Shown piece after piece: positions 17,558 through 62,624 of a stretch of 64,000 nt of DNA; positions within the stretch are counted from its first letter, which is position 1, and each line of letters opens with the position of its first letter. The position numbers and the translations under genes are program-made. The stretch spans positions 19,189 to 83,188 of the forward strand of contig JAFGCN010000007.1 in the NCBI GenBank assembly GCA_016932615.1. Reading direction: 5' to 3'. This stretch comes from Candidatus Aenigmatarchaeota archaeon. Its GTDB lineage: Archaea; Aenigmatarchaeota; Aenigmatarchaeia; QMZS01. The notes beneath the pieces were generated by a model. The model did not search any database, was not told where the DNA came from, and saw nothing but the letters and a program-made list of their open reading frames with translations.

Positions 17558-19261
17558 TCAGAAATACCTTGGCTTCCTTTTGTGGTACTTGGTATGAAGA
17601 AGCTTTTCGGCTTTTTTGCTTAGCGGCTTTCCCAGGAAGTCCTTGTAAAGCGTCTGGATGTCCGGGTTGTGGCTTGAAATTCTTATGGAAAGCCCCTTAT
17701 CTTCCTTGTAAAGCGCCTCCATTCTCTTGAGCCGAATCTCATTTGTAGTGGGCCTCGGCTGACCACCGCCCCCGATGCATCCGCCAGGGCACGCCATGAC
17801 CTCGATAAAGTGATATTTCTTCCACTGCCCGCCGTCGAAAAACTTCCTGATGTTTCCTAAGGTGTGGACAATAGCAACCTTTATGCGCTCTCCGGCAATA
17901 GAAATTTCCGCTTCCCTGATTCCATCGAGCCCGCGAACAGAAGTAAAGTCCAGCTTATTCAGGGATTTTCCGGTAAGCTCCTCATAGGCAACCCTTAGCG
18001 CCGCCTCCATCACGCCGCCAGTGACTCCAAAAAGGGCGGCCCCTCCGCTTGAAGAGCCAAGCGGCGTGTCGTAATCCCCGTCAGGCAACTTTGAAAATTC
18101 TATTCCCTTGGACTTAATGACCCGACCAAGTTCCCGGGTAGTCAGAACAAGGTCAACATCCGGCGAGCCGGTTGTCCTCATTTCGGGCCTTGCCGCTTCA
18201 AGCTTCTTTGCAACGCACGGCATTATCGACGCCACGAAGATACCTTTAGCATCTTTTCCAAGAAGCTTTGCGTAGTAATTTTTGGCTACTGCCCCGAACA
18301 TCTGCTGTGGCGACTTGCATGATGAGATATGCTTAAACAGATGCGGGTAATTCTGCTCGGCAAAAACAATCCAGGAAGGGCAGCAGGAAGTAATAAGCGG
18401 CAGGTTTTTCTTCTTTTTGTACCTCTCCAGAAATTCATTTGCTTCCTCCATTATAGTAAGGTCTGCCGCAAAGTTCGTGTCAAACACCTTGTCAAAGCCA
18501 ATTTTTTTAAGGGCGGAGACCATCTTTCCCTTTACCAAAGTGCCTGGAGCCATGCCAAACATCTCGCCTAGCGACGCCCTGACCGCAGGCGCGGTCTGCA
18601 CTACATAAAACTTTTTCTTGTGCGAGATATCCAGTGCCATCTCATCTATCGTTCTTACAAGCTTTTCGCTCAGCGCCCTTTCCCGGAGAGCGGTTGTCGG
18701 GCAGTAGAGCGCGCATTGGCCGCAGAAAGTGCATGGCGATTCGAGCATCGGCGTATTGTAAGGGGTGGTTATGGATGAGCAGACGCTCCGGTTCACAACA
18801 TCAATGTTCTCTATTCCCTGAATCCTGGAGCAGACCTGGGCGCACCTTCCGCAAAGGACGCAAAGCCGGCCTTCCCGCTCCAGAGGAACCGCCCTCTTGC
18901 AGGAAGAAATGCTTGAAGAGCCAAACATTGTCTTTTCTATTCCAAGCTCCCGAAAGACCTTGGTAATCTCCACGTCATTGTCGCTATGCGCATTTCCGTG
19001 CAAAAGCTCCGCATTCAGCTTTCTTGCATCAGTCACCCGCTTCGTATGGGTCAGAACTTCCATCCCTTCCCTTACCGGAGTATTGCAAGACGTTACAAGC
19101 TTTCCGTCTGCTTCAACGATGCATATCCTGCACCGCCCTTCCGGCTTGAGGTCGGGATGGTAGCAAAGTGTAGGTATGCTTATGCCGATTCTTTTGGCAA
19201 CCTCGAGAATTGTCTCTCCATCTTTTGCAAACACCCTTTTTCCATCGATTTTTACCTGCAT
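17558..19261 (-). CDS. hydA: [FeFe]-hydrogenase catalytic subunit HydA
   Basis: N-terminal 2Fe-2S ferredoxin fold, two 4Fe-4S motifs (CVLCGRCAQVC, CTFCGQCALYCP), H-cluster motifs L1 TSCCPSW, L2 MPCVAKKLE, L3 EVMACPGGCIGGGGQP. Confidence 0.8.
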   Translation of the reverse strand: MQVKIDGKRVFAKDGETILEVAKRIGISIPTLCYHPDLKPEGRCRICIVEADGKLVTSCNTPVREGMEVLTHTKRVTDARKLNAELLHGNAHSDNDVEITKVFRELGIEKTMFGSSSISSCKRAVPLEREGRLCVLCGRCAQVCSRIQGIENIDVVNRSVCSSITTPYNTPMLESPCTFCGQCALYCPTTALRERALSEKLVRTIDEMALDISHKKKFYVVQTAPAVRASLGEMFGMAPGTLVKGKMVSALKKIGFDKVFDTNFAADLTIMEEANEFLERYKKKKNLPLITSCCPSWIVFAEQNYPHLFKHISSCKSPQQMFGAVAKNYYAKLLGKDAKGIFVASIMPCVAKKLEAARPEMRTTGSPDVDLVLTTRELGRVIKSKGIEFSKLPDGDYDTPLGSSSGGAALFGVTGGVMEAALRVAYEELTGKSLNKLDFTSVRGLDGIREAEISIAGERIKVAIVHTLGNIRKFFDGGQWKKYHFIEVMACPGGCIGGGGQPRPTTNEIRLKRMEALYKEDKGLSIRISSHNPDIQTLYKDFLGKPLSKKAEKLLHTKYHKRKPRYF

Positions 19262-20370
19262 ACTTCAAGGAATTCTTTTTTGAAATACCTGAGCGCGCAC
19301 TCAAGGTGGGTTGTCGAAAACCGCCCAAGCGTGCAGTAAGACGTGTCACGGATATCTGGCACAAGCGCCTGTATTATTTTAAGGTCAGACCTGCACGACT
19401 TCTTGTCGCGCATTTTCCTGAGCGCTTCAAGAACGCGGAAATTTCCCTCCCTGCACGGAGTGCAATAGCCGCAGGACTCATGGACAAAAAACTCGGCAAA
19501 TATCTTGGACACTTCCGGTATGCTCCGATTCTGACCCACCACGATAAGGGCTCTTGAGCCCATCATAGCGCCGGTTCCGGAAAAGCTTTTTTCATCAAAA
19601 GGCATCTTCCTGAAATTTTTGTATGGAAGGCACCCAGCCGACGCCCCAAAATAAACTGCCTTTGGCTCCTCTTTTGGCTTTCCCATTGCGATAATCTCAC
19701 CAAGGGGAGTTCCAAGCTTGGCCTCATAAACTCCCGGGGCCTGAAGGTCTCCTGAAAGGCACACAACGGTAAGCTCTGGGTTCCACGTTCCGTCAAGTAT
19801 CAGGGGAATAGTTGCCAGGGTTTCGACATTGTTGACGCAGGTAGGCCGACCATTCAGACCTGCCTGAACAGGATAAGGGGGCTTCCTTCTTACGATGGGG
19901 CGGTTTCCCTCCATGGATTCGAGAATTGCCGACTCCTCGCCGCAGAGGTACGCCCCGGCTCCAAGCACAACCGTAATCCTAAGCCCAATCTTCTTCAGCC
20001 GTGAAGAGGATTTTTTTATCTCGGCTTCAAGCTTTGGCCGAATGTAGGAATATTCCCCCCGGAGGTAAATCCACGCCCGCCGGATTCCCATTGCGTAGGC
20101 GGCAATCGCCATTCCCTCAATAAGAAGTGAAGGATTATTTTCCATTATGAACCTGTCCTTAAACGTTCCCGGCTCGCCCTCATCCGCATTGCATACAAGG
20201 TAGCGCTCGCCTTTTCCCATCGACTCCCACTTCTGTCCCGTAGGATAATTCGAGCCGCTTCTGCCGCGAAGCCCTGACTCCTTTACCAGCCCTATAACCT
20301 TTTTCGGGCTTCTCTTGAGCGCTTTTTCATAGCCCCTCCAGCAAGTGTTAGTTAGCAGTTGCATATTCAA
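19252..20370 (-). CDS. hydB: NuoF-like NADH-binding flavoprotein subunit (HydB)
   Basis: GSNYPTG...CNADEGEPGTFKDR FMN/NADH motifs; ESCGYCTPCREG 4Fe-4S motif. Confidence 0.75.
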   Translation of the reverse strand: MNMQLLTNTCWRGYEKALKRSPKKVIGLVKESGLRGRSGSNYPTGQKWESMGKGERYLVCNADEGEPGTFKDRFIMENNPSLLIEGMAIAAYAMGIRRAWIYLRGEYSYIRPKLEAEIKKSSSRLKKIGLRITVVLGAGAYLCGEESAILESMEGNRPIVRRKPPYPVQAGLNGRPTCVNNVETLATIPLILDGTWNPELTVVCLSGDLQAPGVYEAKLGTPLGEIIAMGKPKEEPKAVYFGASAGCLPYKNFRKMPFDEKSFSGTGAMMGSRALIVVGQNRSIPEVSKIFAEFFVHESCGYCTPCREGNFRVLEALRKMRDKKSCRSDLKIIQALVPDIRDTSYCTLGRFSTTHLECALRYFKKEFLEVCR

Positions 20371-20813
20371 TCAAGCCCGGCAAGAATCTGCCGTATTTTT
20401 TCCTCAGTAAGGTTCGTGTAAACCTTGCCGTCAACCATCATTGAGGGGGCCTTGTCGCACTGCCCAAGGCATGACGCCTTCTCAAGCGTGAATTTTCCGT
20501 CGGTTGTCGTATCTCCAAGCTTCACCCCCAGCTCTTTTTTAAGAAAGTCAAGAAGCGTGAAGGACTTATTCAGGTAGCAGGAAGGGCTCCCACAAACGCG
20601 TATAATATGCTGTCCGCACTTTTTTGTCGGAAGAAAAGCATAAAAGCTGGCAACCCCATAAAGCTTTGCTAAAGGCATTCCAAGGCCACGGCTTACCTTG
20701 TCAAGCTTTTCAAAAGAAACATATCCCTCCTGCCGGACAATCTCCTCAAGAACGGTTAAAAGCTCGATTTCGCCATTCCTGCAGGATTTGATGAGCAAAT
20801 CCAGTTTCCCCAT
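20367..20813 (-). CDS. hydC: NuoE-like thioredoxin-fold [2Fe-2S] subunit (HydC)
   Basis: CGSPSCY ... CLGQCDKAPSMMVDGKVY motif of NuoE/HndA. Confidence 0.75.
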   Translation of the reverse strand: MGKLDLLIKSCRNGEIELLTVLEEIVRQEGYVSFEKLDKVSRGLGMPLAKLYGVASFYAFLPTKKCGQHIIRVCGSPSCYLNKSFTLLDFLKKELGVKLGDTTTDGKFTLEKASCLGQCDKAPSMMVDGKVYTNLTEEKIRQILAGLD

Positions 20814-21965: not shown

Positions 21966-23168
21966 TTGCATATATATTTTATGCAACAAATAATGCTGGA
22001 AGCTTGTCCCAAAAAATACACCTATGATCAAGACAAGGCAGAATTGCCCGAAAAAACATTGGAAAATGTACTAGGCATACTAAAAGACAGACATATAGAA
22101 GTAGAATTCAGGGAAGTCCAAAGCCTACTGGGAATCCCGTTTTACAAGTTGATGTCCACCGACCCCGAACGAAATTACTCCTCATATCTATTTTCAGGCA
22201 GCTCTTCTGGAAAAGGATCAACGCGCTTCCAGTCAAAATGCAGCGCCCTTATGGAGTGGGTCGAGCGAGTAAACGCAGGGCAAATCCCAACTAGACTACT
22301 CAACAGCGAAGAGATGGTCCATTGCAGCTATAATGAACTCTGTACAAACTCCAGAATCGCCCCGAAAGAAATGCTGTCCTACAGCTTCCACCCCTCATTT
22401 AAAAGCAATGCCTCAGAAGAGATACTGAGACATAAAAAAATGCACTACCTGAAGTTCCAGTGCCTTTCCGGACAAGAGGGGGCATACCTTCCAATATTCT
22501 GGCACCTGTATTTCAACTGCTCAAACGGACTTGCTGCAGGGAATACTTATGAGGAAGCAATCCTTCAAGCATTGTGTGAAGTCGTAGAGCGTAATAATGT
22601 CATTGAAACAAGGCTGAGAAATCTAAAATATCGAAGAGAAATAGTGCTAGATACCGATTATAAGCCCTTGAGAGATATGTCTGAGGTGCTTCACAAACAA
22701 GGAATAACCCCCATTATAGAGGACTGGAGTTGTCCGATACCAATACCTACAATGCACTGCCGATTTGGACCCAGAGCGGGCTATGGAACCAGCACTAGCC
22801 CCATAAAGTCTGCCATAAGAGCGATAACTGAAATGGTTCAGGACTATGCGATAAACGAAAAACACTGCCTTCCGCCGCAGGAAAATATAATCTATCCTCC
22901 GGCGGATAAAAAGATAGAGCTAAGCAAAATAAAAAGTCTGGAAAGGCAGGATATCCTTTCAGAGATAAAGGAAATCGTCAGCACCCTTAATTCCATGGGG
23001 TACCAGACCTATGTCAGGGACATCTCCCTACAGATACCTGTGCCTACGGTTCTGGTGGTTGTTCCTGGGCTTAAATGCTATGATTTCAGAAATCAAGAGA
23101 GGCATCTTCTGGATTTTAAGAGCAACCTTGTCCAGTATTATAACGATTACCTCATATACCTGCGCTAA
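21966..23168 (+). CDS. YcaO-domain protein
   Basis: 400 aa; SGKGSTRFQSKCSALMEWVER matches the YcaO ATP-binding signature (GKG..T...A..SAL.E..ER). Confidence 0.7.
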   Translation: MHIYFMQQIMLEACPKKYTYDQDKAELPEKTLENVLGILKDRHIEVEFREVQSLLGIPFYKLMSTDPERNYSSYLFSGSSSGKGSTRFQSKCSALMEWVERVNAGQIPTRLLNSEEMVHCSYNELCTNSRIAPKEMLSYSFHPSFKSNASEEILRHKKMHYLKFQCLSGQEGAYLPIFWHLYFNCSNGLAAGNTYEEAILQALCEVVERNNVIETRLRNLKYRREIVLDTDYKPLRDMSEVLHKQGITPIIEDWSCPIPIPTMHCRFGPRAGYGTSTSPIKSAIRAITEMVQDYAINEKHCLPPQENIIYPPADKKIELSKIKSLERQDILSEIKEIVSTLNSMGYQTYVRDISLQIPVPTVLVVVPGLKCYDFRNQERHLLDFKSNLVQYYNDYLIYLR

Positions 23169-25735: not shown

Positions 25736-26932
25736 ATGAAGCCAATCGTCCTGAAAAAATGCCTAAAGAAATATACCTACGACACCGACAAGGCAGAAAC
25801 GCCCAAAGACACTATCGGAAGAGTGACTCGGGTCCTAAAGGGGCAAGGACTAAATATCGTCTTCGAAAAGCTGGAAAACAGGGCAAATATTCCCGTCTAC
25901 CGCGTAGTTTCTGCCGATCCTTCCAAGGATTATTCTTCCCTAGTCTTTAGCGGAAAGGCGCACGGAAAAGGTGCGACTGAAAGCCAGGCGAAGTGCAGCG
26001 CTCTTATGGAGTGGGTGGAACGAGTAAATGCTGGAAACGCAATACGCCTGCTTGCAAAAGACAAGGAAACAATCTTCAGGGCTCATGAAACTATCCCTTC
26101 AGAATCCACTATAGATATCAAATATATGCTGTCTTACAGCCATAACCCTAGCTTTTATGGGAAAAGTGCAGAAAGGATTATCAAACGCAAAAAAATGCAT
26201 TTTATGAAAGCTTACTGCCTTACCGATAAACGGGAGAGATATCTACCATTTTTATGGCACCTGTACTTCAATGGGTCAAATGGGCTTGCCTCAGGAAACA
26301 CTTACGAGGAAGCTGTTCTTCAGGCGCTTTGTGAAGTTATCGAAAGACACAATATTGTGGAGATAAAGACATTAAATTCAAAAGTAAACGCTATCGAGCT
26401 AGGCTTTCCCTGCAAGCCCCTCGCAGAAATGCTTTCAAAAATCCAGGAAGTTACTGCAAGACCAATCATACAAAAGTGGAGCCGCCCGATACCAGTCCCC
26501 ACTGTCGCCTGCAGGCTACACGATAGCACTGGATACGGAACTGCTCCAAGCCCAGCAAAAGCAGCCATGAGAGCCATAACAGAAGCCATACAAGAAGATA
26601 CCGCTACGAGACGGTATGGACAAGATAGTGCCACAATCAAGATTGAGTCACAAGAGCCAATACCTCTCAGCAGTATGGAAAGCCTGGAGAGGGAAGATCT
26701 GTATGATGAGATTAATGAAATCTCAAGGATTCTTGAGTCCATGGGGCATATGATATATGTTATGGATTTCTCCTCAATCGTCCCCATACCCACTGTCGAG
26801 GTGATTGTGCCTGGACTCAGGTCTGTCGACTACACTGGAAGAGATCGCCACCTACGGGAATTTCAGTCTTGCCTTATTGAGTATTTTAACCTCGTAGCAA
26901 GCTTACCTCAGTGGAATATTTTAACCGCTTAG
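25736..26932 (+). CDS. YcaO-domain protein
   Basis: 398 aa; SGKAHGKGATESQAKCSALMEWVERVNAG signature; paralog of 21966-23168 (shared CxKKYTYDxDKAExP N-terminus). Confidence 0.7.
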   Translation: MKPIVLKKCLKKYTYDTDKAETPKDTIGRVTRVLKGQGLNIVFEKLENRANIPVYRVVSADPSKDYSSLVFSGKAHGKGATESQAKCSALMEWVERVNAGNAIRLLAKDKETIFRAHETIPSESTIDIKYMLSYSHNPSFYGKSAERIIKRKKMHFMKAYCLTDKRERYLPFLWHLYFNGSNGLASGNTYEEAVLQALCEVIERHNIVEIKTLNSKVNAIELGFPCKPLAEMLSKIQEVTARPIIQKWSRPIPVPTVACRLHDSTGYGTAPSPAKAAMRAITEAIQEDTATRRYGQDSATIKIESQEPIPLSSMESLEREDLYDEINEISRILESMGHMIYVMDFSSIVPIPTVEVIVPGLRSVDYTGRDRHLREFQSCLIEYFNLVASLPQWNILTA

Positions 26933-27317: not shown

Positions 27318-27962
27318 CTAATCTTGGCCGTGCTTTTGACGCTCTTTTTTCTCAAGCTCCTCGCGGATTGATTCATACTGCCCAAAATTCTTGTGAACTG
27401 TTTTTTGTAGTGGCTCTGGTTTTGGCTCTATATCGGCCTTTATCGGATTTTTTTCATAATGCCTGTATTCAAGCCGTGGGACTTTATGCTTTTTGCCTTT
27501 TACTTCCTTTTTGATTTTTGCCAATTCATTTAGGATTATCAAAAGCCCCGGAATGAATATGAAAAGCGCAAAGCCCATTGGAGTCCTTACGAAATTTCCA
27601 AGATGACCCAGGTAAGGAATACAAAATATTACTATTCCTTCAACACTGCCGGGCCGTGTTACTTCCATGTCAGGGTCCTCATTTGCATCACCCTTCGTCA
27701 AAAAGCCATCCGGCGTAACGTTTATAATCCTGTGGGTAGTGTAGGTTCCGGCGCTTCCAAAAGTAATAATGTCGCCGATTTTGAGGTCTGACGCATTTAC
27801 CCTCGCTATGGCAACAACATCCCCTACGTTAATGGCTGGAGACATCGAGCCGGAAACAACAGTCCTGAACTGAATGCCCTGGGATTGCAGGCCAAATGCA
27901 ATGAATGCTGCAAGAGCAAGAACAGCTACTGCTGCGCCAAATTTAAGTATATTGCTTGCCAT
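27318..27962 (-). CDS. signal peptidase I (archaeal/ER-type S26B; SipW-like)
   Basis: N-terminal TM, VVSGSMSP (SGSMxP catalytic Ser box), TKGDAN(E)D box; placed directly upstream of four SipW-cognate substrates. Confidence 0.8.
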   Translation of the reverse strand: MASNILKFGAAVAVLALAAFIAFGLQSQGIQFRTVVSGSMSPAINVGDVVAIARVNASDLKIGDIITFGSAGTYTTHRIINVTPDGFLTKGDANEDPDMEVTRPGSVEGIVIFCIPYLGHLGNFVRTPMGFALFIFIPGLLIILNELAKIKKEVKGKKHKVPRLEYRHYEKNPIKADIEPKPEPLQKTVHKNFGQYESIREELEKKERQKHGQD

Positions 27963-28011
27963 AATATAATATACCTCAAGTTACCCTTTCCTTTATCAGG
28001 CCTATTCAAAA

Positions 28012-29205
28012 CTACTTCTCATTTAGCGAGCTGCACTTAAAGTTAAAGTTATTGAGTCTCTGCTCAGCATAAAAAGACAAGTCTGCAATGAGCGAATCCG
28101 TCTGGGCGACATTGTTCTGGTGAGACGTTCCGTCGCACTCAGCGCTGTAGCCGCTGACGGTTATATGCCCAAAGCACCAGAGAAGGCCTACCCTCTTTGG
28201 AACATTGCTTCTAAGAACCATGTTGTTTGTCGGGTCCGCTATTGGAAAGGAGGTAACCTTGTTGCTTATTGGCCCAATGAAAAGCTTTGTGTCGCCCAGG
28301 CCGTATTTTCCATCCTTAACTGTGTCAATCCACCCAAAAAGCTCTATGAAACCGGAAAGCTCGCCCTGGTCTTCGCCCGAAGTCGTGTCGCCTGCCTCTT
28401 CTTCGGGGTCAATGAGGCCGTTTTCAAGGTCCTGTTTGTTCCTGACAACAAGGCAAGCCCATGCCTCCTGGCCACTGACTGAAATCGAAAAAAGCCCCTC
28501 ACCAGTGTCTCCCGGCTTAACGTCTTCCACTATGAAGGTCGGCTTTCCTTCGATGTCGATGCCGTACCCCCCGCATGACTCCTCAGTCAGATTAATCCGG
28601 TACAAAAGCCCTGCCGTATTCCTGGTCGGGTCGGGAAACCCAGCCCGGTTTTTAACCTTTATCTCAATTGTATTTTCTCCTGCTTTCATCCTTCCAAGAA
28701 GGTTGTAAGTGCGAACCGACCCGTAATTTGTGTTTAAAACGCTTGCGCCTACCAAAAGCCCATTGACCCTAAGCTCATAAGTGTTGTCCGCGGCGAGTTC
28801 AATCATCGCGTATTTCGGCGGAACCGTAAGAGTAACCTTTCTTACAAAAGTATAAGTCTCGTCCCGGCTGGGATTTTCAACATAATAGCTTTTCCATATC
28901 CATTTCGCTCCGGGGATGCTGGTCCAGGCGGGATTTCCGGAGTATGCCTCAACTGCGTTTTCTCCGGTTTCCTTTACGGTGTCCTCCTCACTGCTTGTGA
29001 TAATCTGGTAGCAGGCCTCCGGGTTGGGCGAAGGAAGCAGATTCACGTTAAGAGTAAATGGCTGGGATGAAAATCCACTCCCAGACATTATCGAGTCAAC
29101 TGAAAAAGCGCCGGTAACATTCTCCATGCTCCCAAAAGCCAGGGCAAGAATTCCCACTGCAAGAATGCCTGCAAAAACGACGAGATACTGGGAAGAGAGT
29201 CTCAT
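28012..29205 (-). CDS. secreted protein with SipW-cognate (TasA/camelysin-type) signal peptide
   Basis: N-terminus ...ILALAFGSMENVTGAFSVDSIMSGSG carries the TGAFxxD core of the SipW-cognate signal. Confidence 0.55.
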   Translation of the reverse strand: MRLSSQYLVVFAGILAVGILALAFGSMENVTGAFSVDSIMSGSGFSSQPFTLNVNLLPSPNPEACYQIITSSEEDTVKETGENAVEAYSGNPAWTSIPGAKWIWKSYYVENPSRDETYTFVRKVTLTVPPKYAMIELAADNTYELRVNGLLVGASVLNTNYGSVRTYNLLGRMKAGENTIEIKVKNRAGFPDPTRNTAGLLYRINLTEESCGGYGIDIEGKPTFIVEDVKPGDTGEGLFSISVSGQEAWACLVVRNKQDLENGLIDPEEEAGDTTSGEDQGELSGFIELFGWIDTVKDGKYGLGDTKLFIGPISNKVTSFPIADPTNNMVLRSNVPKRVGLLWCFGHITVSGYSAECDGTSHQNNVAQTDSLIADLSFYAEQRLNNFNFKCSSLNEK

Positions 29206-29323
29206 AAACTATCTTGAAAAACCGCCAATATATACTTTACCTCTCGTAAGTGTCCTGTAATGCTTCTGCACGCCGTCCGTTGTTTCATTCATGCAGAAAA
29301 AACAAATGGCAGAGCCGACTTGA

Positions 29324-30280
29324 TTAAGGCGATTGGCAATGCGCAATGCCCCAAAGAATTGCTTCAAGCCCGCTGTAATCCGACGCACTGAAGAAATAGG
29401 TCGTGTCGGTGGGTATGTTTGTCCTGTACCAGTCTATCCACCCGGCATTTGTCCCGACGAATACGACATATATCTTTATTCCTGCGGCCTTTGCGGCATC
29501 GGCCTGGGCTATTGCGGCGGCCTCACCCGTTCCAGGGTTGCCTGGCTTGTTGGGCATCTTGTCGGCGATAAGTATCATGTAATCCGGCGACCCGGCATCA
29601 TTTCGGTCGTTAGGTCCTGTAAGCTCAGTTGTCGCGTTCAGAAGGCCTCCGTAAAGGTTTGTGTTGCTGCCTGTGTCAAGCAGCTCTATTGCCGCGTCGA
29701 TTGCCGCCCTGTCGCCGGTTAAAATCTGGTCCAGGGTTCCCTCATCAGCATAACTTGCCTGGCCTATGTGCGGCCCATCCAGCTCTGGAGTCAGGTTATC
29801 AACAAAGGAATGAGCTGCTGCCTTTAAGGTGTCCATATCGCCGGACGTGCCTCCAGACCTTTGAAACACAAGCATCACGTCAGGCCTTGCCGAGCACATG
29901 CTTGGAAGAGTGCAGTCCGACAGGCAATTCACGCCATTATTGACGCCGTCATCGCACTCCTCAGGCCCGTTTACTGTTCCGTCGCCGCAGTATTCATCGG
30001 TTATGCATTCATCCCAAAGGCAGCTTTCTGTGCAACCCCTCATTCCGGAGTATCCTAACAGAGTTGTGCAAGAGCCCAGGTTTCCGTCGCACTCTTCGCC
30101 TTCTTCGACCTCCCCGTTTCCGCAAGAAGAAGGAAAAACTGCCGCCACCGAAAATGAATTCCCCGCAGAGCTTTCCGTGTCAGTTATAAAAGCGCCTGTC
30201 GGCTTTTCGGCCGTGCCTGAAAGGATAAGTAAAGCTAGACCAACAAACATTACACCGGCTAAAACTCTTGAACTCACCAT
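29324..30280 (-). CDS. SipW-cognate secreted protein with Myxococcus-type Cys-rich repeats and vWA domain
   Basis: PTGAFITDTESSAGNSFSVA signal; CGNGEVEEGEECD and CGDGTVNGPEECDDG repeats; vWA-like LVFQRSGGTSGD ... LIADKMPN ... IYVVFVG. Confidence 0.6.
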   Translation of the reverse strand: MVSSRVLAGVMFVGLALLILSGTAEKPTGAFITDTESSAGNSFSVAAVFPSSCGNGEVEEGEECDGNLGSCTTLLGYSGMRGCTESCLWDECITDEYCGDGTVNGPEECDDGVNNGVNCLSDCTLPSMCSARPDVMLVFQRSGGTSGDMDTLKAAAHSFVDNLTPELDGPHIGQASYADEGTLDQILTGDRAAIDAAIELLDTGSNTNLYGGLLNATTELTGPNDRNDAGSPDYMILIADKMPNKPGNPGTGEAAAIAQADAAKAAGIKIYVVFVGTNAGWIDWYRTNIPTDTTYFFSASDYSGLEAILWGIAHCQSP

Positions 30281-30409
30281 GCTTAAATATATTTAGCCGG
30301 GGATGCTATATATGCAAAGTGGTTTGTAGTGCTATTGTAATGGTTTTTGCAGACGTTCCTGCCACAGGGGGAAAACAAAAAAGCTGAAAAGTGAAAAGAA
30401 AATGTTGGA

Positions 30410-31189
30410 CTAATCTACTGGGTTGCAAAGGAATTTGCCGTTGTTTCTTGCCTGGACTACCTCAAAGGAGATGTCTGCTGTGTAGCTGTCTGTCTGGACG
30501 CTGTTGTCTATAGGCAGGCCATTGCAGTATCCATCACCTTCGATGGTTCCAAGGCACCATGCTGCGCCTATAAAGTATGTCTTGGTTGGGTCCAATGGCT
30601 CGCCATCAATTCCGCCCACGTTGTTCTCTGCTGCGTCTGCAAGAGTCCACTTGACTGTTGAAATTGCGTCTGCCGTGCCTGCTGTCAAAAGCTCATCGCA
30701 CTCCACCTGATAGATGTTGTCTCCAGGGACTGCATCGTCTTCATCATCGCAAATGTCTGCCCAAATCATGAAGTTGAGGTTTGCTCCAAGCTCTCCATCT
30801 GTATCAGACTCGCAAGTTGGCTCATCATCGATTTCTGGCTCGTTGCATCCGTTTTCATCATCGCTTGTCTTTGTAAGAACCACGCATCCCCATGCAGGGT
30901 TTGTGTCAACGTGGATGCTTATCGTGTTCTCACCATAGTCGCCGGGCTTAAGGTCTGCGTAGTTGAAAAACTTCTGTGCCTCAAGGTCAGTGAGTTCCCA
31001 GCTGCATTCCTCCTTAGGATCTCCATTGTAAGTACAGGTGCTGTCAATCAACAGGTCAATTTCTCCGGCAGTAAATGTGTTGCCCTGTGATGTCTCAGTG
31101 TCAGAGAAGAATGCTCCTGTCATGCTTCCGCCAATAGCTGCTGCTGTTAGTCCGATAACTAGTAAACTGACTAGTATTTTTGTATTCAT
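30410..31189 (-). CDS. SipW-cognate (TasA/camelysin-like) secreted protein
   Basis: MNTKILVSLLVIGLTAAAIGGSMTGAFFSDTETSQGNTFTAGEIDL matches SipW-cognate signal consensus (GAFFSD.E.S..N.F.AG.LDL). Confidence 0.65.
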   Translation of the reverse strand: MNTKILVSLLVIGLTAAAIGGSMTGAFFSDTETSQGNTFTAGEIDLLIDSTCTYNGDPKEECSWELTDLEAQKFFNYADLKPGDYGENTISIHVDTNPAWGCVVLTKTSDDENGCNEPEIDDEPTCESDTDGELGANLNFMIWADICDDEDDAVPGDNIYQVECDELLTAGTADAISTVKWTLADAAENNVGGIDGEPLDPTKTYFIGAAWCLGTIEGDGYCNGLPIDNSVQTDSYTADISFEVVQARNNGKFLCNPVD

Positions 31190-31375
31190 ATAAATAGATT
31201 GTCCTCTACAATATTTAAGGAAAAAATAATTCCATTACGCTCGTAATTGTTGGATACTTCTTGGAAGTCTTATCTGGCAGTAATTTCAAAAAATCGGGCT
31301 TAATGAATTTTATCCGGGAGTAATCAAACTGAACAGAATGAGTAAGAAAAATTAAGAGAAAAAATAAAACAAAAC

Positions 31376-32815
31376 TTAGTCGCCGTTGCTGCAGTTTGCA
31401 AGATCTTCAAGTATCTCCAGCAAGTCGTTGAAATTCCCTGCGTCAAAGTAGTATGTAGAGTCGGTTGCAATATTTGCCTTGAGCCAGTCGGCATTGTCGG
31501 TGCTAACTCCAACCCCTACGACATATATCTTTGTGCCTCTGCTATCAGCAACATCTGCCTGCGCCTTTGCCATGTTTCTTGGCGTGTCTGGGCTTGTTGG
31601 AAGGTTTGGCTCTCCATCAGTTATTATGACCATGTAGTCCGGGGAGTCTGCGTCATCCCTGTCGTAAGAGGCATCTTCAAGCTCTTGGTTTGCAAGCAAG
31701 ATTCCCTCATAAAGGTTTGTGCTTCCGCCAGGAGATACTGCATCTATTGCCGCGTCGATTGCTGTTTTGTCGCTGGTTAAGTGCAGATCAAGTGTTCCGC
31801 TTGTTGAGAAACTTGTCTGGCCCATATGCGCTCCGTCTGTTTTTGGGTCAAGGGCTGTGACAAATGCGTGGGCTGCGTTCTTCATGGTGTTCATCTCAGT
31901 TGTGTCAATGCTTGCTGATCTGTCGAGAACGGTCATCACGTCAGGCGCTGCCGCGCAGATTCCCGGAAGGGTGCAGTCATTTCGGCATTCGTCATCATTT
32001 ACGTCATTTCCGTCGTCGCATTCCTCGCCCTGTTCAAGAATTCCATTTCCGCACACCGGCTCAGTGCCTGGCACGCAAAGGAAGTTCTCATTATGCCTCT
32101 GCTGGATTGCTTCAAAGGATATGTCTGCCATTACGCTGTCTGTCTGGATGATGTTTCCTGTTTCACTGGGAACGCTCCATGCAACCGCTATGCAGTAGTT
32201 GACTCCGGGTTGGACTGGTTCTCCCGTCAGGGCATCGGCAATTGGCCAGACAAGGTCTGTTGCCTTTGCTCCCTGGACAAGGTACTCATCTATTTCTACA
32301 TCGAAGTCGTTTTCGCAGTCATAATCCCTCCAGATGTCAAAAGACAAAACATCCTGCAGTTCGCCTTCGCCTAATCCTTGGTCGCCGCAGGTGCCATCTG
32401 CCTCATCTTCCGGCTCTGTGCAGCCGTTTTCAGCGTTTGAGAGGCCGGATATTTTTGCGCAAACCCAGGCCGGGTTTGAGGTAACGTGGATGCTTATTGT
32501 GCTCTCGCCATAGTCGCCGGGCTTGACATCACCAAAATTTAGGATTGGCTGTCCGTTCAGGTCCTGGGCAAGCCATGTGCATTCGCATTCTGTTCCAGGA
32601 ACAGGGTAATCATTTCCTCCCTGCCAGGTTCCGTCAACGCACTCGTTTCCATTGTAGTGGCATTCGCTGTCTACAGTAAGGTCAATTTCTCCGGCAGTAA
32701 ATGTGTTGCCAGTTGATGTTTCCGTGTCTGAGAAGAATGCTCCAGTCATTGTGCCGCCAATAGCTATCGCTGTCAGTCCGATAACTAGTAAACTGACTAG
32801 TATTTTTGTATTCAT
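31376..32815 (-). CDS. SipW-cognate secreted protein with Myxococcus-type Cys-rich repeat and C-terminal vWA domain
   Basis: N-terminus nearly identical to 30410-31189 product; CGNGILEQGEECDDGNDVNDDEC repeat; vWA MIDAS VLDRSASI ... ITDGEPN ... IYVVGVG. Confidence 0.65.
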   Translation of the reverse strand: MNTKILVSLLVIGLTAIAIGGTMTGAFFSDTETSTGNTFTAGEIDLTVDSECHYNGNECVDGTWQGGNDYPVPGTECECTWLAQDLNGQPILNFGDVKPGDYGESTISIHVTSNPAWVCAKISGLSNAENGCTEPEDEADGTCGDQGLGEGELQDVLSFDIWRDYDCENDFDVEIDEYLVQGAKATDLVWPIADALTGEPVQPGVNYCIAVAWSVPSETGNIIQTDSVMADISFEAIQQRHNENFLCVPGTEPVCGNGILEQGEECDDGNDVNDDECRNDCTLPGICAAAPDVMTVLDRSASIDTTEMNTMKNAAHAFVTALDPKTDGAHMGQTSFSTSGTLDLHLTSDKTAIDAAIDAVSPGGSTNLYEGILLANQELEDASYDRDDADSPDYMVIITDGEPNLPTSPDTPRNMAKAQADVADSRGTKIYVVGVGVSTDNADWLKANIATDSTYYFDAGNFNDLLEILEDLANCSNGD

Positions 32816-32901
32816 ATAAATAGCTTAACTTCGGGATTATAAACATAAAACAGTTTCAATTACATGTGTAATTGATAGATACTGCCCAAAGATTAGCGGT
32901 T

Positions 32902-36402: not shown

Positions 36403-37626
36403 CTACTTGTTCCAGTGGTAAACATATAGCTCGACATACTTTCCAAGAACCGTGACGGGAAGTATGTTTGTCGAAGACCTTATATTCTTGCCTTTGGGAG
36501 GCACCGTTCCCGCCTCAAGGTAAGGCACTCTGTTTGGCTGGATTTCCTTGATTATCTTCTCTATTGTTTCGGCAGAATCAGAAACATCAGACAGGTCGTA
36601 CATCTGCCCTTTGGTGGTATTGGACATCTCGTCCATCCACTGGGAAAGTGTTCCTCTGCTGCACGAACAGTAATTGTCGGGCACAACTACGCTCTGGCAG
36701 CCCGCCCCAGTCTTTATTGTCCCACAGGCATCGCCTCTGAATGCAAATATGTAGACGTCATCCTGAGTCGCCCTCTTAAGCCCCCTGTCAAAAAGTGTTC
36801 TTGAGCCGCCAGAAGGGCAGCCGCACTCGGTTCCGCCAGGAAGCTCATCAGAAATAGGTATCGCGACTTTTATGACATTTTCTCTCCAGCCAAATTGCCC
36901 GGGTCCCTTGTAAGGCCCCATGGCAATTGCGCACTCGAGGCCTGCGCCCCAGTCCTCATCATTTGAGCCCTGTCCTCCGCAGGGGTTTCTGCATACCATA
37001 TTTTCATAATTCAAAGGCATGGCAACAACATGAAAATAATCGGTTTCCTTTGTTTCCTTTCTCACATCAAATGGAATCCAAGCGCCATTTTTCTGGATGC
37101 AGCAGCTTGGAGTCCCCAAAAGGAAAATGGTCATTTCGGCTTTCTTTCCATTAGCTCTAAGGTCATCAATGACCTGCGGCACATCGGTCACAAGGGCATA
37201 TATCTGCTCGCACATCGAGGCAGACGTGTCTACAACAGCAACAATCTGGACATCCGCAGAAACATTTGGGAATGGAATTCTAAGGTACCAGTTGCCTTTT
37301 CCGTATATGGCATCAAACTTCCACTCAAGCTCTTTTTTGACATCGATTTCCCCAACGCCAGGCCCAAAGTAAATTGTGGTGTTTCCAGACTTTGCTGCTA
37401 TTCCCAAAAGCTCTATCATAGTCTTTCCTGTTCGTGATTCCGTGGTGTAGAGTATAGAGTTTACTCCTGCCTTGAAGCTTTCAAGCTGCTGGCGTTCTGT
37501 CAGGTCTTTTGCGGTGTTCGTATAGTCCTTCATGGAAAAGACCCCTAAAAAGAAAAGAAGCCCAATAATAGCAACTCCAAGAACTACCATGCCAAGTATC
37601 TCAAACGTCTGTCCTTTTGCTTTCAT
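36403..37626 (-). CDS. pilin-like protein with vWA domain
   Basis: MKAKGQTFEILGMVVLGVAIIGLLFF (KG|Q...E prepilin signal); MIDAS VAVVDTSASM. Confidence 0.5.
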   Translation of the reverse strand: MKAKGQTFEILGMVVLGVAIIGLLFFLGVFSMKDYTNTAKDLTERQQLESFKAGVNSILYTTESRTGKTMIELLGIAAKSGNTTIYFGPGVGEIDVKKELEWKFDAIYGKGNWYLRIPFPNVSADVQIVAVVDTSASMCEQIYALVTDVPQVIDDLRANGKKAEMTIFLLGTPSCCIQKNGAWIPFDVRKETKETDYFHVVAMPLNYENMVCRNPCGGQGSNDEDWGAGLECAIAMGPYKGPGQFGWRENVIKVAIPISDELPGGTECGCPSGGSRTLFDRGLKRATQDDVYIFAFRGDACGTIKTGAGCQSVVVPDNYCSCSRGTLSQWMDEMSNTTKGQMYDLSDVSDSAETIEKIIKEIQPNRVPYLEAGTVPPKGKNIRSSTNILPVTVLGKYVELYVYHWNK

Positions 37627-40943: not shown

Positions 40944-43900
40944 ATGGAGTTGACATATTCTCCGGGCCAGAAAAACCGGAGCTTTCCCACTATCATGATA
41001 CTTGCACTGCAAGCCATTATTGCCGGCTTGCTGTTTTCACTGCCCGCATACGCAACAAATATAAGCTCCTGCTCAATCATAAGCGCCCCAGGAAACTACA
41101 CTCTTGTAGACAACATAACGCTCACGACAGGCCAAAACTGCATCGAGGTAAATATACGAGATGTAGTAATTGACTGCGCCGGAAACGCAATTGCAGGAAG
41201 CGGTAGCTCGGGCACTTCAGGAGTTTACGCAAGCAAGGACGGATTCATCCTGAGAAACTGCACAATTACAAATTTCCATAACGGCCTCCGCATGGAGGGG
41301 TCAAACAATGGCCTTGTCGAAAATTCCAGGATAATTGGAAACTACCGCGGAATTACCCTTTCGTATTCGGAAAACAATGCTATCTCCAACACGCTGCTTA
41401 TCCAGAACAACATCGGGGTGCAAATTTCCTTTTCCGAGAGAAACCGCTTCTACAACAATCTCCTGAATAACACCAACAACACGGTCTTTATTGGAACAAA
41501 CGAGAACACCTGGTATTCCAGCAAGGAAAAAGGCAAGAGGATATACTCTCCCGGAACTTATATTGGCGGAAACTACTGGTCAAACCCCGGTGGCGGACCC
41601 TCAGATTCCTGTAATGATGCAAACCGCGATGGGTTCTGCGATGAGCCGTACGAAATGGACCCTCAGAATAGGGACTCATTTCCACTAAGCAACAGGTACC
41701 TTTCCGACACCGTGCCTCCAACGATTATAATTAATTCCCCGAAAACAAACCAGATTGTAGACAATACCACAATAACCATATCGATTACCGCAAATGATGC
41801 CGTTTATGCTTATACCAACCTCTCGATAATGCAGGGAAACGAAACCGTAAAGAGTGCAGTCAGCACCAAGAACGGCACCTTTGAGGAAGACTTAAAAGTA
41901 AATAAGGGCGGCTATTACAACATAACCGCAACCGCCTACGACATGGACGGAAACAGCGCATCAAGCACTGTCTACAACATCCTTACCCCTCTGGAAGTCA
42001 CCTCCTGCTCAGACTTGAATGTTGCAGGGGAAAAATACACCGTCGAAAATACTATAACCCACACGAGCGGAAGCATATGCCTCAACATCCAGGCAGACAA
42101 CATCATTCTCGACTGCAAAAACCGGGCAATAACCGGAAAGGAAGCCGCATATAAGACCTACGGCATTTCGCTTAACGGCAGGAAAAACGTCACCATAAAA
42201 AACTGCATTGTTTCTGAGTGGGACTACGGAATATTTTCACAGTTCTCTACAGGCAACCACATCAACAACAACCTTGTCCTCAAAAACAGAAATACCGGGA
42301 TATACCTTTATTCCTCTGGCGGAAACGAAATCCAGGGAAATGTCATTGGCAATAATACCATGGGCATACGGCTCTATTCTTCTTCCGACAACAGGATATA
42401 CAACAATGTATTTAGCAACGAAAAAGAAGCTGGGTTTGAAGGGGAAACGCTGAAAAATTATTGGAACGTCGAAAAGAAAGAAGGCCTCAGAGTAACTTCA
42501 AAGGGCAGCAAAATTGGAGGAAACTTCTGGTCGGGAAAAGGAAACGATTACTCCATAGCATGCACTGACAAAGACACTGACGGGTTCTGCGATGAGCCCT
42601 ATGATGTCGGGTATGGAAGCCAAAATTCCGGCACTGGGTTCTTCCTGAAAGATATTATAACAGGCCTGTTTTTGACGCTCAGTGTTTTTGGCCCGCCTCC
42701 CGAAAGCAATAACATAGATTATCTTCCCCTGAGCGATGAGTTTGCGCCAGATGTTACGCCGCCTGCCACAAATATCACAATAACGCTTCCAAATGGGAAA
42801 GCTTATAACTCAAGCCAGTGGATAAGCGAAAATTATGTAAATGTAACCGCCTACTGCTCAGACGGGTACGGCTCAGGATGCAAGAGAATTCTCTACTGCA
42901 TAGACCGTTATGGAAACTGCACTCCTGAAACAACCTACAAGGAACCGTTCAAGATAGAGCCGGACAAAAACCTGACCGAGCAAATATACCTCAGGTACTA
43001 TAGCGTGGATAAGGAAGACAACAACGAAACAATAAAGATTGCAATGATAAGAAGCTTGTCATCCAGCCAGAAAGTCGTGATATCAAGCCCGCTTGAAGGC
43101 GACCAGTTCAACTCAACAAACATAACCCTGTCGGGAACTGTCCTGAGGGAAAACGAGCACAACACAACCCAGATTAACATATACAATTCAAGCGGAAACG
43201 TTACGCGCACAGTAACCATAACTGCAAACGGCACATTTGAACGTAACCTGACGCTACCCGGAGAAGGCACATACCTTGCAGAGGTAATTTTCAGAAGCAT
43301 CTATGGCTTTAACACCACAGAAAGTGAATTCAGCATAATTGTAGACCTGACCCCTCCGACAATCAGCTTCAAGCTAAACAAGGAGAAGGTATTTGAAGGC
43401 GAAACAATAATCGGAACGTGCAATGCGCAGGACAATTTTAAGGGGTCATTTCAGGGAACAATTACCGGGATAAATACCTCATCAGAAGGCGCAAAAAGCG
43501 CAACCTGCATAGCAATCGATGATGCCGGAAACATAGCACGGGAAACGCTGGATTATCTGGTAGAAGAGAAAGTATGCACCAAGGGCGAGAAAAAATGCGC
43601 GTCAAATGTCCTCTACCTATGCGAAGATAATGCCTGGACCGAAAAAGAAACCTGCGAGTACGGCTGCGATGCCAAGAACAAAGTATGCATCAGTGCTCCA
43701 AAGAATAATTCAAAAAATGGAACCATTGACCCCAGAGATGATGACCCAAATCAGGATGATGGCGATAAAGAACTAAACCCCACCGTAGTTGCAACAAGCG
43801 CATTCCTTCTGCTGTTCATTGTCGGAGTTATGGCATTCCTTTACTTCAAGATTTTCCAAAAGCCGACCTATGACTTTGACAAGAAGCTTGCATTCCTTGA

Positions 43901-44054
43901 AGCAAGGGTGAGAGAAGCCGAAAGCAAGGGAAAAGACACAACAAATGTAAGAAGCGAACTAGAGATGGCCGAGCAGGAAGTCAGCATGGGGCTTTTCGAA
44001 ATGGCAGGCCCAAGAATAAAAGCCCTTGAAAAAGACCTTAAACGGCTGAAGTAA
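40944..44054 (+). CDS. right-handed parallel beta-helix repeat surface protein with C-terminal TM anchor and coiled coil
   Basis: 1036 aa; signal peptide; two blocks of PbH1-like repeats (NCTITNFHNGLRMEGSNNGLVENSRIIGNYRGITL...); C-terminal VVATSAFLLLFIVGVMAFLYF TM. Confidence 0.5.
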   Translation: MELTYSPGQKNRSFPTIMILALQAIIAGLLFSLPAYATNISSCSIISAPGNYTLVDNITLTTGQNCIEVNIRDVVIDCAGNAIAGSGSSGTSGVYASKDGFILRNCTITNFHNGLRMEGSNNGLVENSRIIGNYRGITLSYSENNAISNTLLIQNNIGVQISFSERNRFYNNLLNNTNNTVFIGTNENTWYSSKEKGKRIYSPGTYIGGNYWSNPGGGPSDSCNDANRDGFCDEPYEMDPQNRDSFPLSNRYLSDTVPPTIIINSPKTNQIVDNTTITISITANDAVYAYTNLSIMQGNETVKSAVSTKNGTFEEDLKVNKGGYYNITATAYDMDGNSASSTVYNILTPLEVTSCSDLNVAGEKYTVENTITHTSGSICLNIQADNIILDCKNRAITGKEAAYKTYGISLNGRKNVTIKNCIVSEWDYGIFSQFSTGNHINNNLVLKNRNTGIYLYSSGGNEIQGNVIGNNTMGIRLYSSSDNRIYNNVFSNEKEAGFEGETLKNYWNVEKKEGLRVTSKGSKIGGNFWSGKGNDYSIACTDKDTDGFCDEPYDVGYGSQNSGTGFFLKDIITGLFLTLSVFGPPPESNNIDYLPLSDEFAPDVTPPATNITITLPNGKAYNSSQWISENYVNVTAYCSDGYGSGCKRILYCIDRYGNCTPETTYKEPFKIEPDKNLTEQIYLRYYSVDKEDNNETIKIAMIRSLSSSQKVVISSPLEGDQFNSTNITLSGTVLRENEHNTTQINIYNSSGNVTRTVTITANGTFERNLTLPGEGTYLAEVIFRSIYGFNTTESEFSIIVDLTPPTISFKLNKEKVFEGETIIGTCNAQDNFKGSFQGTITGINTSSEGAKSATCIAIDDAGNIARETLDYLVEEKVCTKGEKKCASNVLYLCEDNAWTEKETCEYGCDAKNKVCISAPKNNSKNGTIDPRDDDPNQDDGDKELNPTVVATSAFLLLFIVGVMAFLYFKIFQKPTYDFDKKLAFLEARVREAESKGKDTTNVRSELEMAEQEVSMGLFEMAGPRIKALEKDLKRLK

Positions 44055-44657: not shown

Positions 44658-45321
44658 ACTCGGGTGGGCTCGGTCCGGAAAAACTCTCTGCAGAAGGAGC
44701 AGAATCCTTTCTGCGCTTTAATCGCCACATTAGTAAAATAGCCAGGATTATTACTAGGAAGATTATTCCAATCACCCAATAATTGGTTTCCTGTGTTTCG
44801 CCATTCTCTATGTCTGGAGCGTCTTCACCACTCTCTGGACCGATCTCTAAAGATGACCCGGGGTTTTCAGAAACTATGCAGGCAGGAGAGTACATTGAAA
44901 CGTCAAGATTCGCCAGAGTACTATTCTGCTCATCATAAATTTTTATCATGGAAGCGTCCCTAAAATAGGGCACAATAAGGGTCTTGTTGAAGCTTTCGAC
45001 GAAATAAGGGCTTCCCGGGTCTTCGCCTTCCCTTGGCGGAGGCGGGAATATGATCTGATTAGTGCCATACCTGAAGGAATAAAGCACTTCCCCCGAGCAG
45101 GAGATGACTTCACAGGTGTGCCCCGACTCCGGCTGAATAAGCCGTTCCGGGAAATACCCTCTGCCAAGCTTAACCGCTGAATAATCCAGCTCGCCCTGGC
45201 TGTAGTGAATATCCACGACATAAATCGTCCCAAAAGCCCCCTGTACAGGGGCAAAACACACCAAAAAAGCAAATAAAGCCCCAAATATCCACGACCCCAT
45301 AACCTTAAACTCAATTTCCAT
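44644..45321 (-). CDS. secreted protein with C-terminal TM anchor
   Basis: signal peptide, C-terminal WVIGIIFLVIILAILLMWRLKRRK anchor. Confidence 0.35.
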   Translation of the reverse strand: MEIEFKVMGSWIFGALFAFLVCFAPVQGAFGTIYVVDIHYSQGELDYSAVKLGRGYFPERLIQPESGHTCEVISCSGEVLYSFRYGTNQIIFPPPPREGEDPGSPYFVESFNKTLIVPYFRDASMIKIYDEQNSTLANLDVSMYSPACIVSENPGSSLEIGPESGEDAPDIENGETQETNYWVIGIIFLVIILAILLMWRLKRRKDSAPSAESFSGPSPPEYGGY

Positions 45322-62169: not shown

Positions 62170-62624
62170 GCGATCGAAACCTTGAACACATCCCCAATTC
62201 CACAGTCCTCGTCAAGCATACCATAGCATTTCGCGCCTGGAGCCAGCATCAGGCCAGGGTCCATACAGGAAACACCGCCACTTATGCCCCCCGTCCAATC
62301 TTCCGGACCCTTTGGAACACCATTTATATAGTAGCTTGTTCCCGTCATGTTTACGCTATAAGAATTCGTGGTAAGCGCCTTAAGCTCAAAATAAATTGCC
62401 CCTCCATCCTGATAAACCGTGGTGATTGCGACCTTCTGGTTCAGCTTTTCTGTGTTGGATATTACTTCACTGGTCCTTTGCTGGGAACCCTCCATTGTGC
62501 CCTGAAGCCAGGTATAGCTGAAGGCAATAAGAACAACGGTTATCATGACCATAAGAATTGTGGCCACTACTGGTGAAACACCCTTCCTAAAAGCGTTATT
62601 GCTATTTGAAGCTAAAAGGCCCAT
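62127..62624 (-). CDS. class III signal peptide (pilin-like) protein
   Basis: AFRKGVSPVVATILMVMITVVLIAFSY N-terminus; shared C-terminal C.G.L..DC..G...K block with 61576-62169. Confidence 0.5.
   Translation of the reverse strand: MGLLASNSNNAFRKGVSPVVATILMVMITVVLIAFSYTWLQGTMEGSQQRTSEVISNTEKLNQKVAITTVYQDGGAIYFELKALTTNSYSVNMTGTSYYINGVPKGPEDWTGGISGGVSCMDPGLMLAPGAKCYGMLDEDCGIGDVFKVSIAWGAEDSKSISNCS

Follow-up and report, generated by a model that had tools for sequence, protein, structure and literature searches.

A signal peptidase gene and four TasA-type substrate genes predicted to build an adhesin-bearing fiber in a Candidatus Aenigmarchaeota genome

We analyzed a 64-kb stretch of DNA (hereafter the window) from the genome of a member of Candidatus Aenigmarchaeota, a DPANN lineage, and focused on the genes at positions 27318–32815, which encode four secreted TasA-type proteins and a signal peptidase I. 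We consider it probable, with fairly good confidence, that this gene cluster builds a Sec-exported, peptidase-processed extracellular fiber of the TasA type, held together by donor strands and containing subunits with von Willebrand factor type A (vWA) and lectin-like adhesin domains. An original prediction, made from the DNA alone, had proposed a dedicated peptidase with TasA/camelysin-type substrates for an extracellular fiber or adhesin in an archaeon. That proposal is supported by the SipW-cognate match of two of the substrates and by a predicted jelly roll in one of them, P4, whose nearest structural relative is TasA.

N-terminal motif, donor strand, and subunit architecture

The region holds five co-directional open reading frames (ORFs), all on the minus strand. 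When ORFs and translations were rechecked, the coordinates and N-termini quoted in the original prediction proved exact. The genes, in coding-strand order, and their parts are as follows.

31376..32815, minus strand: P5 (479 aa), first gene; Sec signal, donor-strand motif, TasA-like jelly roll, a single Cys-rich acidic repeat, and a vWA domain whose metal ion-dependent adhesion site (MIDAS) is intact
32738..32815, minus strand: P5 signal peptide, residues 1–26; cleavage at TGA26↓F27 predicted from the hhalign alignment with TasA
32678..32737, minus strand: P5 predicted donor strand and linker, residues 27–46, FFSDTETSTGNTFTAGEIDL; aligns with TasA residues 28–46
31409..31942, minus strand: P5 vWA domain, residues 292–469 (PF00092, 72 bits, 7.9e-20)
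30410..31189, minus strand: P4 (259 aa), second gene; signal, predicted donor strand, and bare TasA-like jelly roll
31112..31189, minus strand: P4 signal peptide, residues 1–26
31052..31111, minus strand: P4 predicted donor strand and linker, residues 27–46
29324..30280, minus strand: P3 (318 aa), third gene; signal (residues 1–30), donor-strand-like segment, two Cys-rich repeats, and vWA domain, with no jelly roll
28012..29205, minus strand: P2 (397 aa), fourth gene; signal (residues 1–33, TGA↓F), degenerate donor segment, galactose-binding-like jelly roll (residues ~50–210), and TasA-like C-terminal domain (residues ~215–397)
27318..27962, minus strand: P1 (214 aa), fifth and last (3′) gene; signal peptidase I of the ER/archaeal type (S26B, SipW-like), with two transmembrane segments

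The genes follow one another in the order P5-P4-P3-P2-P1, with intergenic gaps of 186, 129, 118, and 49 nt, and make up one minus-strand operon. The peptidase gene, thought at first to lie immediately upstream of its substrates, is in fact the 3′-terminal gene, downstream of P2. Proteins identical to these carry public locus tags JW727_01225–01235. A scan for promoters and terminators gave counts equal to those of shuffled controls; the consensus sequences it used are bacterial and uninformative for an archaeon.

The N-terminus of P4 is MNTKILVSLLVIGLTAAAIGGSMTGAFFSDTETSQGNTFTAGEIDL, and P5 differs from it at 3 positions within the first 46 residues. The corresponding motifs are PTGAFITDTESSAGNSF in P3 and VTGAFSVDS in P2, and T-G-A↓F (the arrow marks the predicted cut) is kept in all four substrates. 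As had been proposed, P4 and P5 begin with the SipW-cognate signal, scoring 22.4 and 22.2 bits, respectively, against TIGR04088 (cognate_SipW, cutoff 19). We also built a family hidden Markov model (HMM) from the first 50 residues of 61 P4 homologues and ran it against all 560 stop-to-stop ORFs of the window, where it matches only P4 (85 bits, E = 7e-26), P5 (84 bits), and P3 (19.3 bits, E = 2e-5). Of the core proposed for P2 and P3, TGA↓F is kept in both and the family HMM matches P3; neither protein matches TIGR04088 at E ≤ 1. The P2 motif is degenerate and fails both N-terminal HMMs; we count P2 as a member because of its family alignment and its TasA-like C-terminal domain. In that small family (alignment A2), the more distant members have the canonical T.AFF.DTETS.GN.F.AG..DL.

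The substrates have classical Sec signals with an n-region, an h-region, and no twin arginine, and no RR motif is present in the n-regions MNTK, MVSSR, and MR. P4 and P5 score 22.5 and 24.4, respectively, against PF12389 (Peptidase_M73, gathering score 22.5), over residues 11–52, and the model is matched by all 61 aligned P4 homologues (best E = 5.7e-11). The B. subtilis TasA equivalog model NF046066 (cutoff 450) gives 12.9 bits. By this score, the TasA-like protein of the window is a distant member of the TasA family and not a TasA orthologue. The N-terminal and domain matches are far beyond chance.

The family profile aligns with TasA in hhalign at a probability of 93% (E = 3e-7). Over residues 28–261, the TasA sequence used agrees fully with PDB chain 8aur_A, which begins at A28. 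The alignment pairs GGS-MTGA↓FFSDTETSQGNTFTAGEIDL with GGG-TWA↓AFNDIK-SKDATFASGTLDL and DLKPGD with NLKPGD, and it sets TWA27↓A28 of TasA opposite TGA26↓F27 of the family. Because TGA↓F aligns with the TasA cleavage site, we predict cleavage at A26↓F27 in P4 and P5, A30↓F31 in P3, and A33↓F34 in P2, each after T-G-A. The donor strand of TasA comprises residues 28–38, with F29 and F39 as hydrophobic donor-strand contacts (cryo-EM; PMC9674648), and these two residues are aligned to F28 and F39 of P4 and P5. No part of the family is more conserved than this donor segment, with F28, D30, E32, S34, N37, A41, and G42 invariant in the 61 sequences. BsaA-type "exchange-and-lock" subunits have an N-E-K isopeptide triad, made of an Asn from the donor strand and a Glu and a Lys from the acceptor. 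N37 stands two residues ahead of F39, like N35/F37 of BsaA, a TasA-like protein of C. perfringens, and K81 and E87/E119 are invariant or nearly so in the family; by rough numbering, BsaA E56 and K74 map to no conserved E or K.

The original prediction had taken the entire conserved motif to be the signal. Its first half is the signal peptide, whereas the stretch FFSDTETSxGNTFTAGxIDL lies past the predicted cleavage site and, since it aligns with the TasA donor strand, would be more than a signal peptide. If what is called the "SipW-cognate signal peptide" is a cleavage site plus a donor strand, its extreme conservation is explained.

An AlphaFold2 model of P4, computed from a 61-sequence alignment, has a mean predicted local distance difference test (pLDDT) score of 84.5, with disorder only at residues 13–39; the donor region is disordered in this monomer model. 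When the model was compared with the PDB by Foldseek, the only matches below 1e-3 were the TasA fiber 8aur_A (E = 9e-6) and the TasA monomer structures 5of2 and 5of1, with template modeling (TM) scores of 0.40–0.47. The structural comparison with TasA suggested at the outset thus returned a predicted jelly roll for the mature domain of P4, with the TasA fiber subunit as its best match. A sequence-profile search of the PDB with alignment A1 returned nothing, even at E ≤ 10, so the TasA link needed hhalign and the fold search.

A TasA-like acceptor domain is present in three of the four substrates. P5 is 49% identical to P4 over residues 1–257, and the MIDAS of its vWA domain is intact, with DRSAS (DxSxS) at residue 298. 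The C-terminal domain of P2 is 31% identical to residues 59–259 of P4 (E = 5e-21). The AlphaFold2 model of P2 (pLDDT 78.7) has two domains, the N-terminal one resembling the sugar-binding domains of glycoside hydrolase family 2 enzymes and rhamnosidases, with a weak Bac_rhamnosid_N match. P3 has the donor-strand-like segment FITDTESSAGNSFSVA and a vWA domain (PF00092, 34 bits). The report of two substrates with vWA domains and Cys repeats is therefore borne out for the vWA domains of P5 and P3 and, for the repeat, only in P5: the Cys-rich acidic repeat of P5 scores 29.1 bits on TIGR02232 (cutoff 20.8) and 27.2 on DUF4215 (cutoff 27), whereas that of P3 scores 18.3 bits on TIGR02232, under the cutoff.

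Two smaller observations concern the 5′ ends of these genes. Over their first 135 nt (31052–31200 and 32678–32826), P4 and P5 are 90% identical in DNA, with 35 of 42 codons identical among identical residues, and the 12 nt ahead of the ATG are the same in both; at the orthologous N-terminus in another Aenigmatarchaeota metagenome-assembled genome (MAG; locus L001, 2407–2541), only ~50% of codons are identical. This near-identity points to an event within the genome, either gene conversion or a recent 5′ duplication. In its public annotation, P3 has 308 aa and begins at Met11; starting instead from the ATG at 30280 (30251–30280) places a positively charged stretch, MVSSR, at the front as the n-region, and the signal peptide then looks more typical.

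The signal peptidase, related loci, and known systems

With 97.4 bits on TIGR02228 (sigpep_I_arch, cutoff 51.85) and an SGSMSP box, P1 agrees with its description as an ER/archaeal-type signal peptidase I with an SGSMxP box. It has two hydrophobic segments. Because it aligns with human SEC11A/C over the SGSM, HR, and GDxN boxes and because its catalytic residues S39 (SGSM), H77 (THR), and D92/D98 are each at least 95% conserved among 72 cluster-encoded peptidases, we assign P1, by sequence comparison, as an S26B Ser/His enzyme rather than a Ser/Lys enzyme. Testing against the S26B and SipW models gave a divided answer: P1 is above the TIGR02228 cutoff but scores 93.2 bits on the Bacillus SipW equivalog NF046067, under the cutoff of 190, and is therefore the same type of enzyme without being an orthologue of Bacillus SipW. 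Peptidase distances do not discriminate, at ~0.60 between the window and the candidate phyla radiation (CPR) and 0.63–0.72 between the window and the haloarchaeal enzymes, and we claim no horizontal transfer of the peptidase. No second peptidase copy was found in the 64-kb window.

We sought relatives of the module in one genome per species and found 457, from which 77 loci were fetched (76 from Patescibacteria-type MAGs and 1 from the other Aenigmatarchaeota MAG); a close metagenomic relative (L078) brought the set to 78. The closest sequence relatives belong to Patescibacteria (CPR), at 40–50% identity. A peptidase gene lies on the same strand, downstream of 1–5 tandem TasA-like genes, in 69 of the 78 loci, and 8 of the 9 loci lacking one end at a contig edge. 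None of the genes upstream of P5 is conserved beside the module in this set.

A census of 224 motif-bearing ORFs in these loci comprised 52 bare subunits, 99 with C-terminal extensions, 14 TasA+vWA fusions, 9 P2-like insertions, and 49 in which the motif occurs without a recognizable TasA core. The original prediction had not recognized the vWA combination from TasA-type proteins; the TasA-like + vWA architecture is in fact common in Patescibacteria, and a vWA protein is encoded in the C. perfringens sipW-bsaABC operon (PMC11580942). Direct fusion of the motif to vWA occurs in 1 of the 224 ORFs, which is P3 itself, and a full-library search with P3 returned no protein matching its N-terminus. 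This distribution suggests that P3 derives from a P5-like gene and is specific to its lineage.

At the other Aenigmatarchaeota locus, small genes lie between the TasA-like genes (L001, 3913–4281 and 5568–6270); their toxin-antitoxin-like character is a guess from the translations. One TasA-like paralogue there has a C-terminal extension that is LamG-like, judging by sequence alone.

PF12389 homologues are widespread in archaea and Patescibacteria, where their function is untested (Wang et al. 2022, PMC9245690), and in the literature we found no paper tying TasA or SipW to DPANN. The novelty implied by the original prediction is overstated, as RefSeq already annotates this type of module in haloarchaea: Haloferax lucentense has two genes for a "TasA family protein" followed by "signal peptidase I", and Natronorubrum aibiense has four for a "SipW-dependent-type signal peptide-containing protein" with "signal peptidase I". 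These haloarchaeal arrangements sit on plasmids. Their proteins match our family N-terminal HMM at E = 2e-16 to 5e-7, plus one weaker at 2e-4, and the core HMM matches most of them, up to 2e-17; they carry Tat RR motifs (RRR).

The B. subtilis tapA-sipW-tasA operon resembles the window in encoding an ER/archaeal-type signal peptidase together with its substrates, in having T-x-A↓ followed by a conserved donor strand at the N-terminus, its hydrophobic residues in matching places, and in its jelly-roll subunit, TasA being the top structural match. TapA and P3 are alike as accessory proteins with a donor strand only. In the window, by contrast, the peptidase comes last, the substrates are four paralogues instead of two, no TapA homologue is present, and the host is an archaeon; the subunits are disulfide-rich and fused to vWA or lectin-like domains, and the scores fall short of the equivalog models (NF046066, 12.9 versus 450; NF046067, 93 versus 190).

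The sipW-bsaA-bsaB-bsaC operon of C. perfringens likewise brings together a SipW-type peptidase, two TasA-like paralogues, and a vWA protein, and a heteropolymer of the paralogues has been proposed (PMC11580942). That operons can hold multiple paralogues and that the family has members in archaea was already noted in the same study, which also reports that the vWA protein BsaC needs a type IV pilin for its secretion (PMC11580942). There, however, vWA is a separate protein with neither a TasA-like domain nor a donor strand, and sipW is the first gene.

In the tafi cluster of Haloarcula hispanica (TafA–G), TafA is no longer processed once TafD, the peptidase of the cluster, is deleted; mass spectrometry places the start of mature TafA at Phe30; and TafC is a lectin-domain tip adhesin that supplies the first donor strand (PMC11821415). 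Shared by tafi and the window are the archaeal host, a signal peptidase I belonging to the cluster, a mature subunit starting with Phe (predicted here), and predicted donor-strand assembly. This likeness is one of analogy and draws on the described features, not on PF12389 membership of TafA; the proteins of the window would work like those of tafi without being members of that system. The tafi and haloarchaeal proteins use Tat (RR), whereas the substrates of the window use Sec, and TafD is a two-domain enzyme with four transmembrane segments and a TafG (DUF5305) partner, whereas P1 is a simple enzyme with two. No DUF5305 protein was matched among the window ORFs scanned.

The "TasA family" and "SipW-dependent-type signal peptide-containing protein" operons of Patescibacteria, which are annotated but uncharacterized, have an identical grammar of 1–5 tandem paralogues and then the peptidase, and TasA+vWA fusions (14 ORFs) as well as P2-like insertions (9 ORFs) recur in them. 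They differ in their bacterial hosts, and the P3 architecture of donor strand, Cys repeats, and vWA without a jelly roll was not seen there. AbpA of the Pyrobaculum archaeal bundling pili (PMC9245690) is far more divergent, with no dedicated peptidase in its locus and no SipW-cognate motif.

TasA/SipW systems are thus already recognized in Firmicutes and haloarchaea and, by annotation, in Patescibacteria; what is distinctive here is the DPANN host, the adhesin fusions, and the unique architecture of P3. The module adds a DPANN (Aenigmarchaeota) example to the TasA/SipW donor-strand fiber systems, a sound but unsurprising find given its prior annotation in haloarchaea and hundreds of ultra-small bacteria.

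Proposed assembly and alternative readings

From the motif, domain content, catalytic residues, fold, and synteny described above, we infer cleavage, polymerization, and subunit roles as follows. Sec would export the four substrates, whose signals have an n-region and h-region and lack a twin arginine. P1 would then cut after T-G-A, as the alignment with the TasA cleavage site suggests, leaving a mature Phe N-terminus (FFSDTETSxGNTF...). By homology with TasA, the new N-terminus would serve as a donor β-strand that enters the jelly roll of the next subunit and polymerizes the fiber. Domain content points to P4, a candidate for the major fiber subunit, as the plain shaft subunit, to P5 as a protein that would join the shaft and display vWA on a disulfide-rich stalk, and to P2 as the bearer of a lectin-like domain. 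In the most speculative step, P3 would sit at one fiber end as a TapA/TafC-like initiator or tip adhesin: because it has a donor strand without an acceptor domain, only a free groove at one end of the fiber would be open to it, and it may act as a cap, an initiator, or a tip adhesin. The biological role is likely attachment to surfaces or host cells, or matrix formation.

Several observations weigh against this fiber assignment. The case for donor-strand polymerization is one of homology, and PF12389 covers only the N-terminal ~40 residues of the window's own proteins, with a score at the gathering threshold. P2 is unmatched by the family N-terminal HMM in the 560-ORF scan, the MIDAS of P3 is degenerate (QRSGGTS), and no C-terminal transmembrane segment, sortase signal, or archaeosortase signal that would anchor the fiber to the cell was seen in the substrates. 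Finally, P1 could be the general peptidase of the genome, of which 64 kb was examined, because archaea have type I signal peptidases of the S26B type only.

This last possibility, that P1 is a housekeeping Sec11-type signal peptidase whose adjacency says nothing of specificity, is the first to weigh. The enzyme scores best on the general archaeal model TIGR02228 and falls under the SipW equivalog cutoff (93 versus 190 bits), reduced DPANN genomes may keep a single copy, and the window has no second one. The order of TasA-like genes and then peptidase is nevertheless kept in 69 of the 78 loci, those of Patescibacteria included. In Patescibacteria, the housekeeping signal peptidase is expected to be LepB-type. 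The same arrangement recurs on haloarchaeal plasmids, and TafD of the analogous haloarchaeal cluster is specifically needed for TafA processing (PMC11821415). We therefore regard a purely general role for P1 as unlikely, though a possibility to be taken seriously.

Alternatively, the substrates could be non-polymerizing secreted or surface adhesins and lectins that merely share a specialized signal peptide for the neighboring peptidase, with no fiber being formed. The 49 of 224 motif-bearing ORFs that lack a recognizable TasA core would fit such proteins, as would P3 with its missing jelly roll; vWA and galactose-binding-like domains could act as monomers, and the TasA fold match is only moderate. 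Against this, the strongest conservation lies past the predicted cleavage site, in the segment aligned with the TasA donor strand, which would be unexpected for a mere signal peptide. Three of the four proteins also have the TasA-like acceptor domain, and tandem paralogues are the rule in the related loci, as in characterized heteropolymers (PMC11580942, PMC11821415). A module without a fiber thus seems improbable to us.

The module could also be secreted cargo of the adjacent prepilin-like cluster (32902–52973), exported or assembled by a type IV pilus-like machine, as has been reported in C. perfringens for BsaC and BsaA. Directly upstream lie at least 10 co-directional ORFs with class-III-like N-termini ([KR]G and a hydrophobic helix), only 86 nt separate that cluster from P5, and BsaC secretion in C. 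perfringens needs a type IV pilin (PMC11580942). We give this reading little credence: those upstream genes are not conserved beside the module in the 78 related loci, the window yielded neither a pilus ATPase nor a platform protein nor a prepilin peptidase, and the substrates have type I, not class III, cleavage motifs. That the TasA-like proteins are camelysin-type metalloproteases and not structural proteins, as the Pfam name Peptidase_M73 ("Camelysin metallo-endopeptidase") would have it, we reject as highly improbable because P2–P5 contain no HExxH motif and P4 has a single histidine, and the protease assignment of CalY is itself a probable misidentification (PMC11580942).

The TasA-type fiber remains our preferred reading, and two points of wider interest follow. 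What is annotated as a "SipW-cognate signal peptide" would really be a cleavage site plus a donor strand. Ultra-small, host-dependent lineages join this cassette to many adhesin domains, which suggests a modular adhesive fiber that may bear on host attachment. Both points leave current views standing, and the roles in these lineages are predictions from sequence. As a bolder and rather doubtful extension, tandem TasA-like paralogues with a SipW-type peptidase might constitute a major, so far unstudied attachment organelle of ultra-small episymbionts, common to Patescibacteria and DPANN archaea and thus to two domains. The conserved cleavage-site/donor-strand cassette would then be a portable "plug" by which a TasA-type shaft receives exchangeable heads with adhesin domains such as vWA, lectin, or LamG, and P3 would be its most extreme form, a vWA cap with nothing but the plug, left when a P5-like gene lost its jelly roll.

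Neighboring genes in the window

Elsewhere, the window carries archaeal-type genes for aCPSF1/FttA, TYW3, Trm5/TYW2, a Hef-like helicase, and proteins with archaeal pilin N-terminal domains, together with an ORF assigned by eye to ribosomal protein S19e; no tRNA genes were found in the 64 kb. The prepilin-like cluster at 32902–52973 (minus strand) contains at least 10 consecutive ORFs with archaeal class-III prepilin-like N-termini, most of which have no Pfam match. Among its products are a protein encoded at 36403–37626 (MKAKGQTFEILG...) with a DTSAS MIDAS-like motif, an 831-aa and an 801-aa protein with CDPDC-type Cys repeats, an M64 peptidase (45311–46759), and a protein with a C25-like C-terminus (47682–50087). 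The sole plus-strand gene inside this long minus-strand cluster of surface-protein genes (40944–44054) encodes a 1036-aa NosD/right-handed β-helix surface protein with Ig-like domains and a C-terminal transmembrane helix. At 61576–62624 (minus strand), two small genes encode proteins that have the N-terminal domain of archaeal type IV pilins (Pilin_N).

On the other side of the module, two YcaO-family genes (21966–23168 and 25736–26932, plus strand) flank the gene for the Hef-like helicase. At 17558–20813 (minus strand), the large subunit of an [FeFe]-hydrogenase (Fe_hyd_lg_C, 321 bits) is encoded together with partners resembling NuoF and NuoE, here on an archaeal contig, and a 969-aa type IIG (Eco57I/MmeI-like) restriction-modification fusion protein is encoded at 11209–14118 (minus strand).

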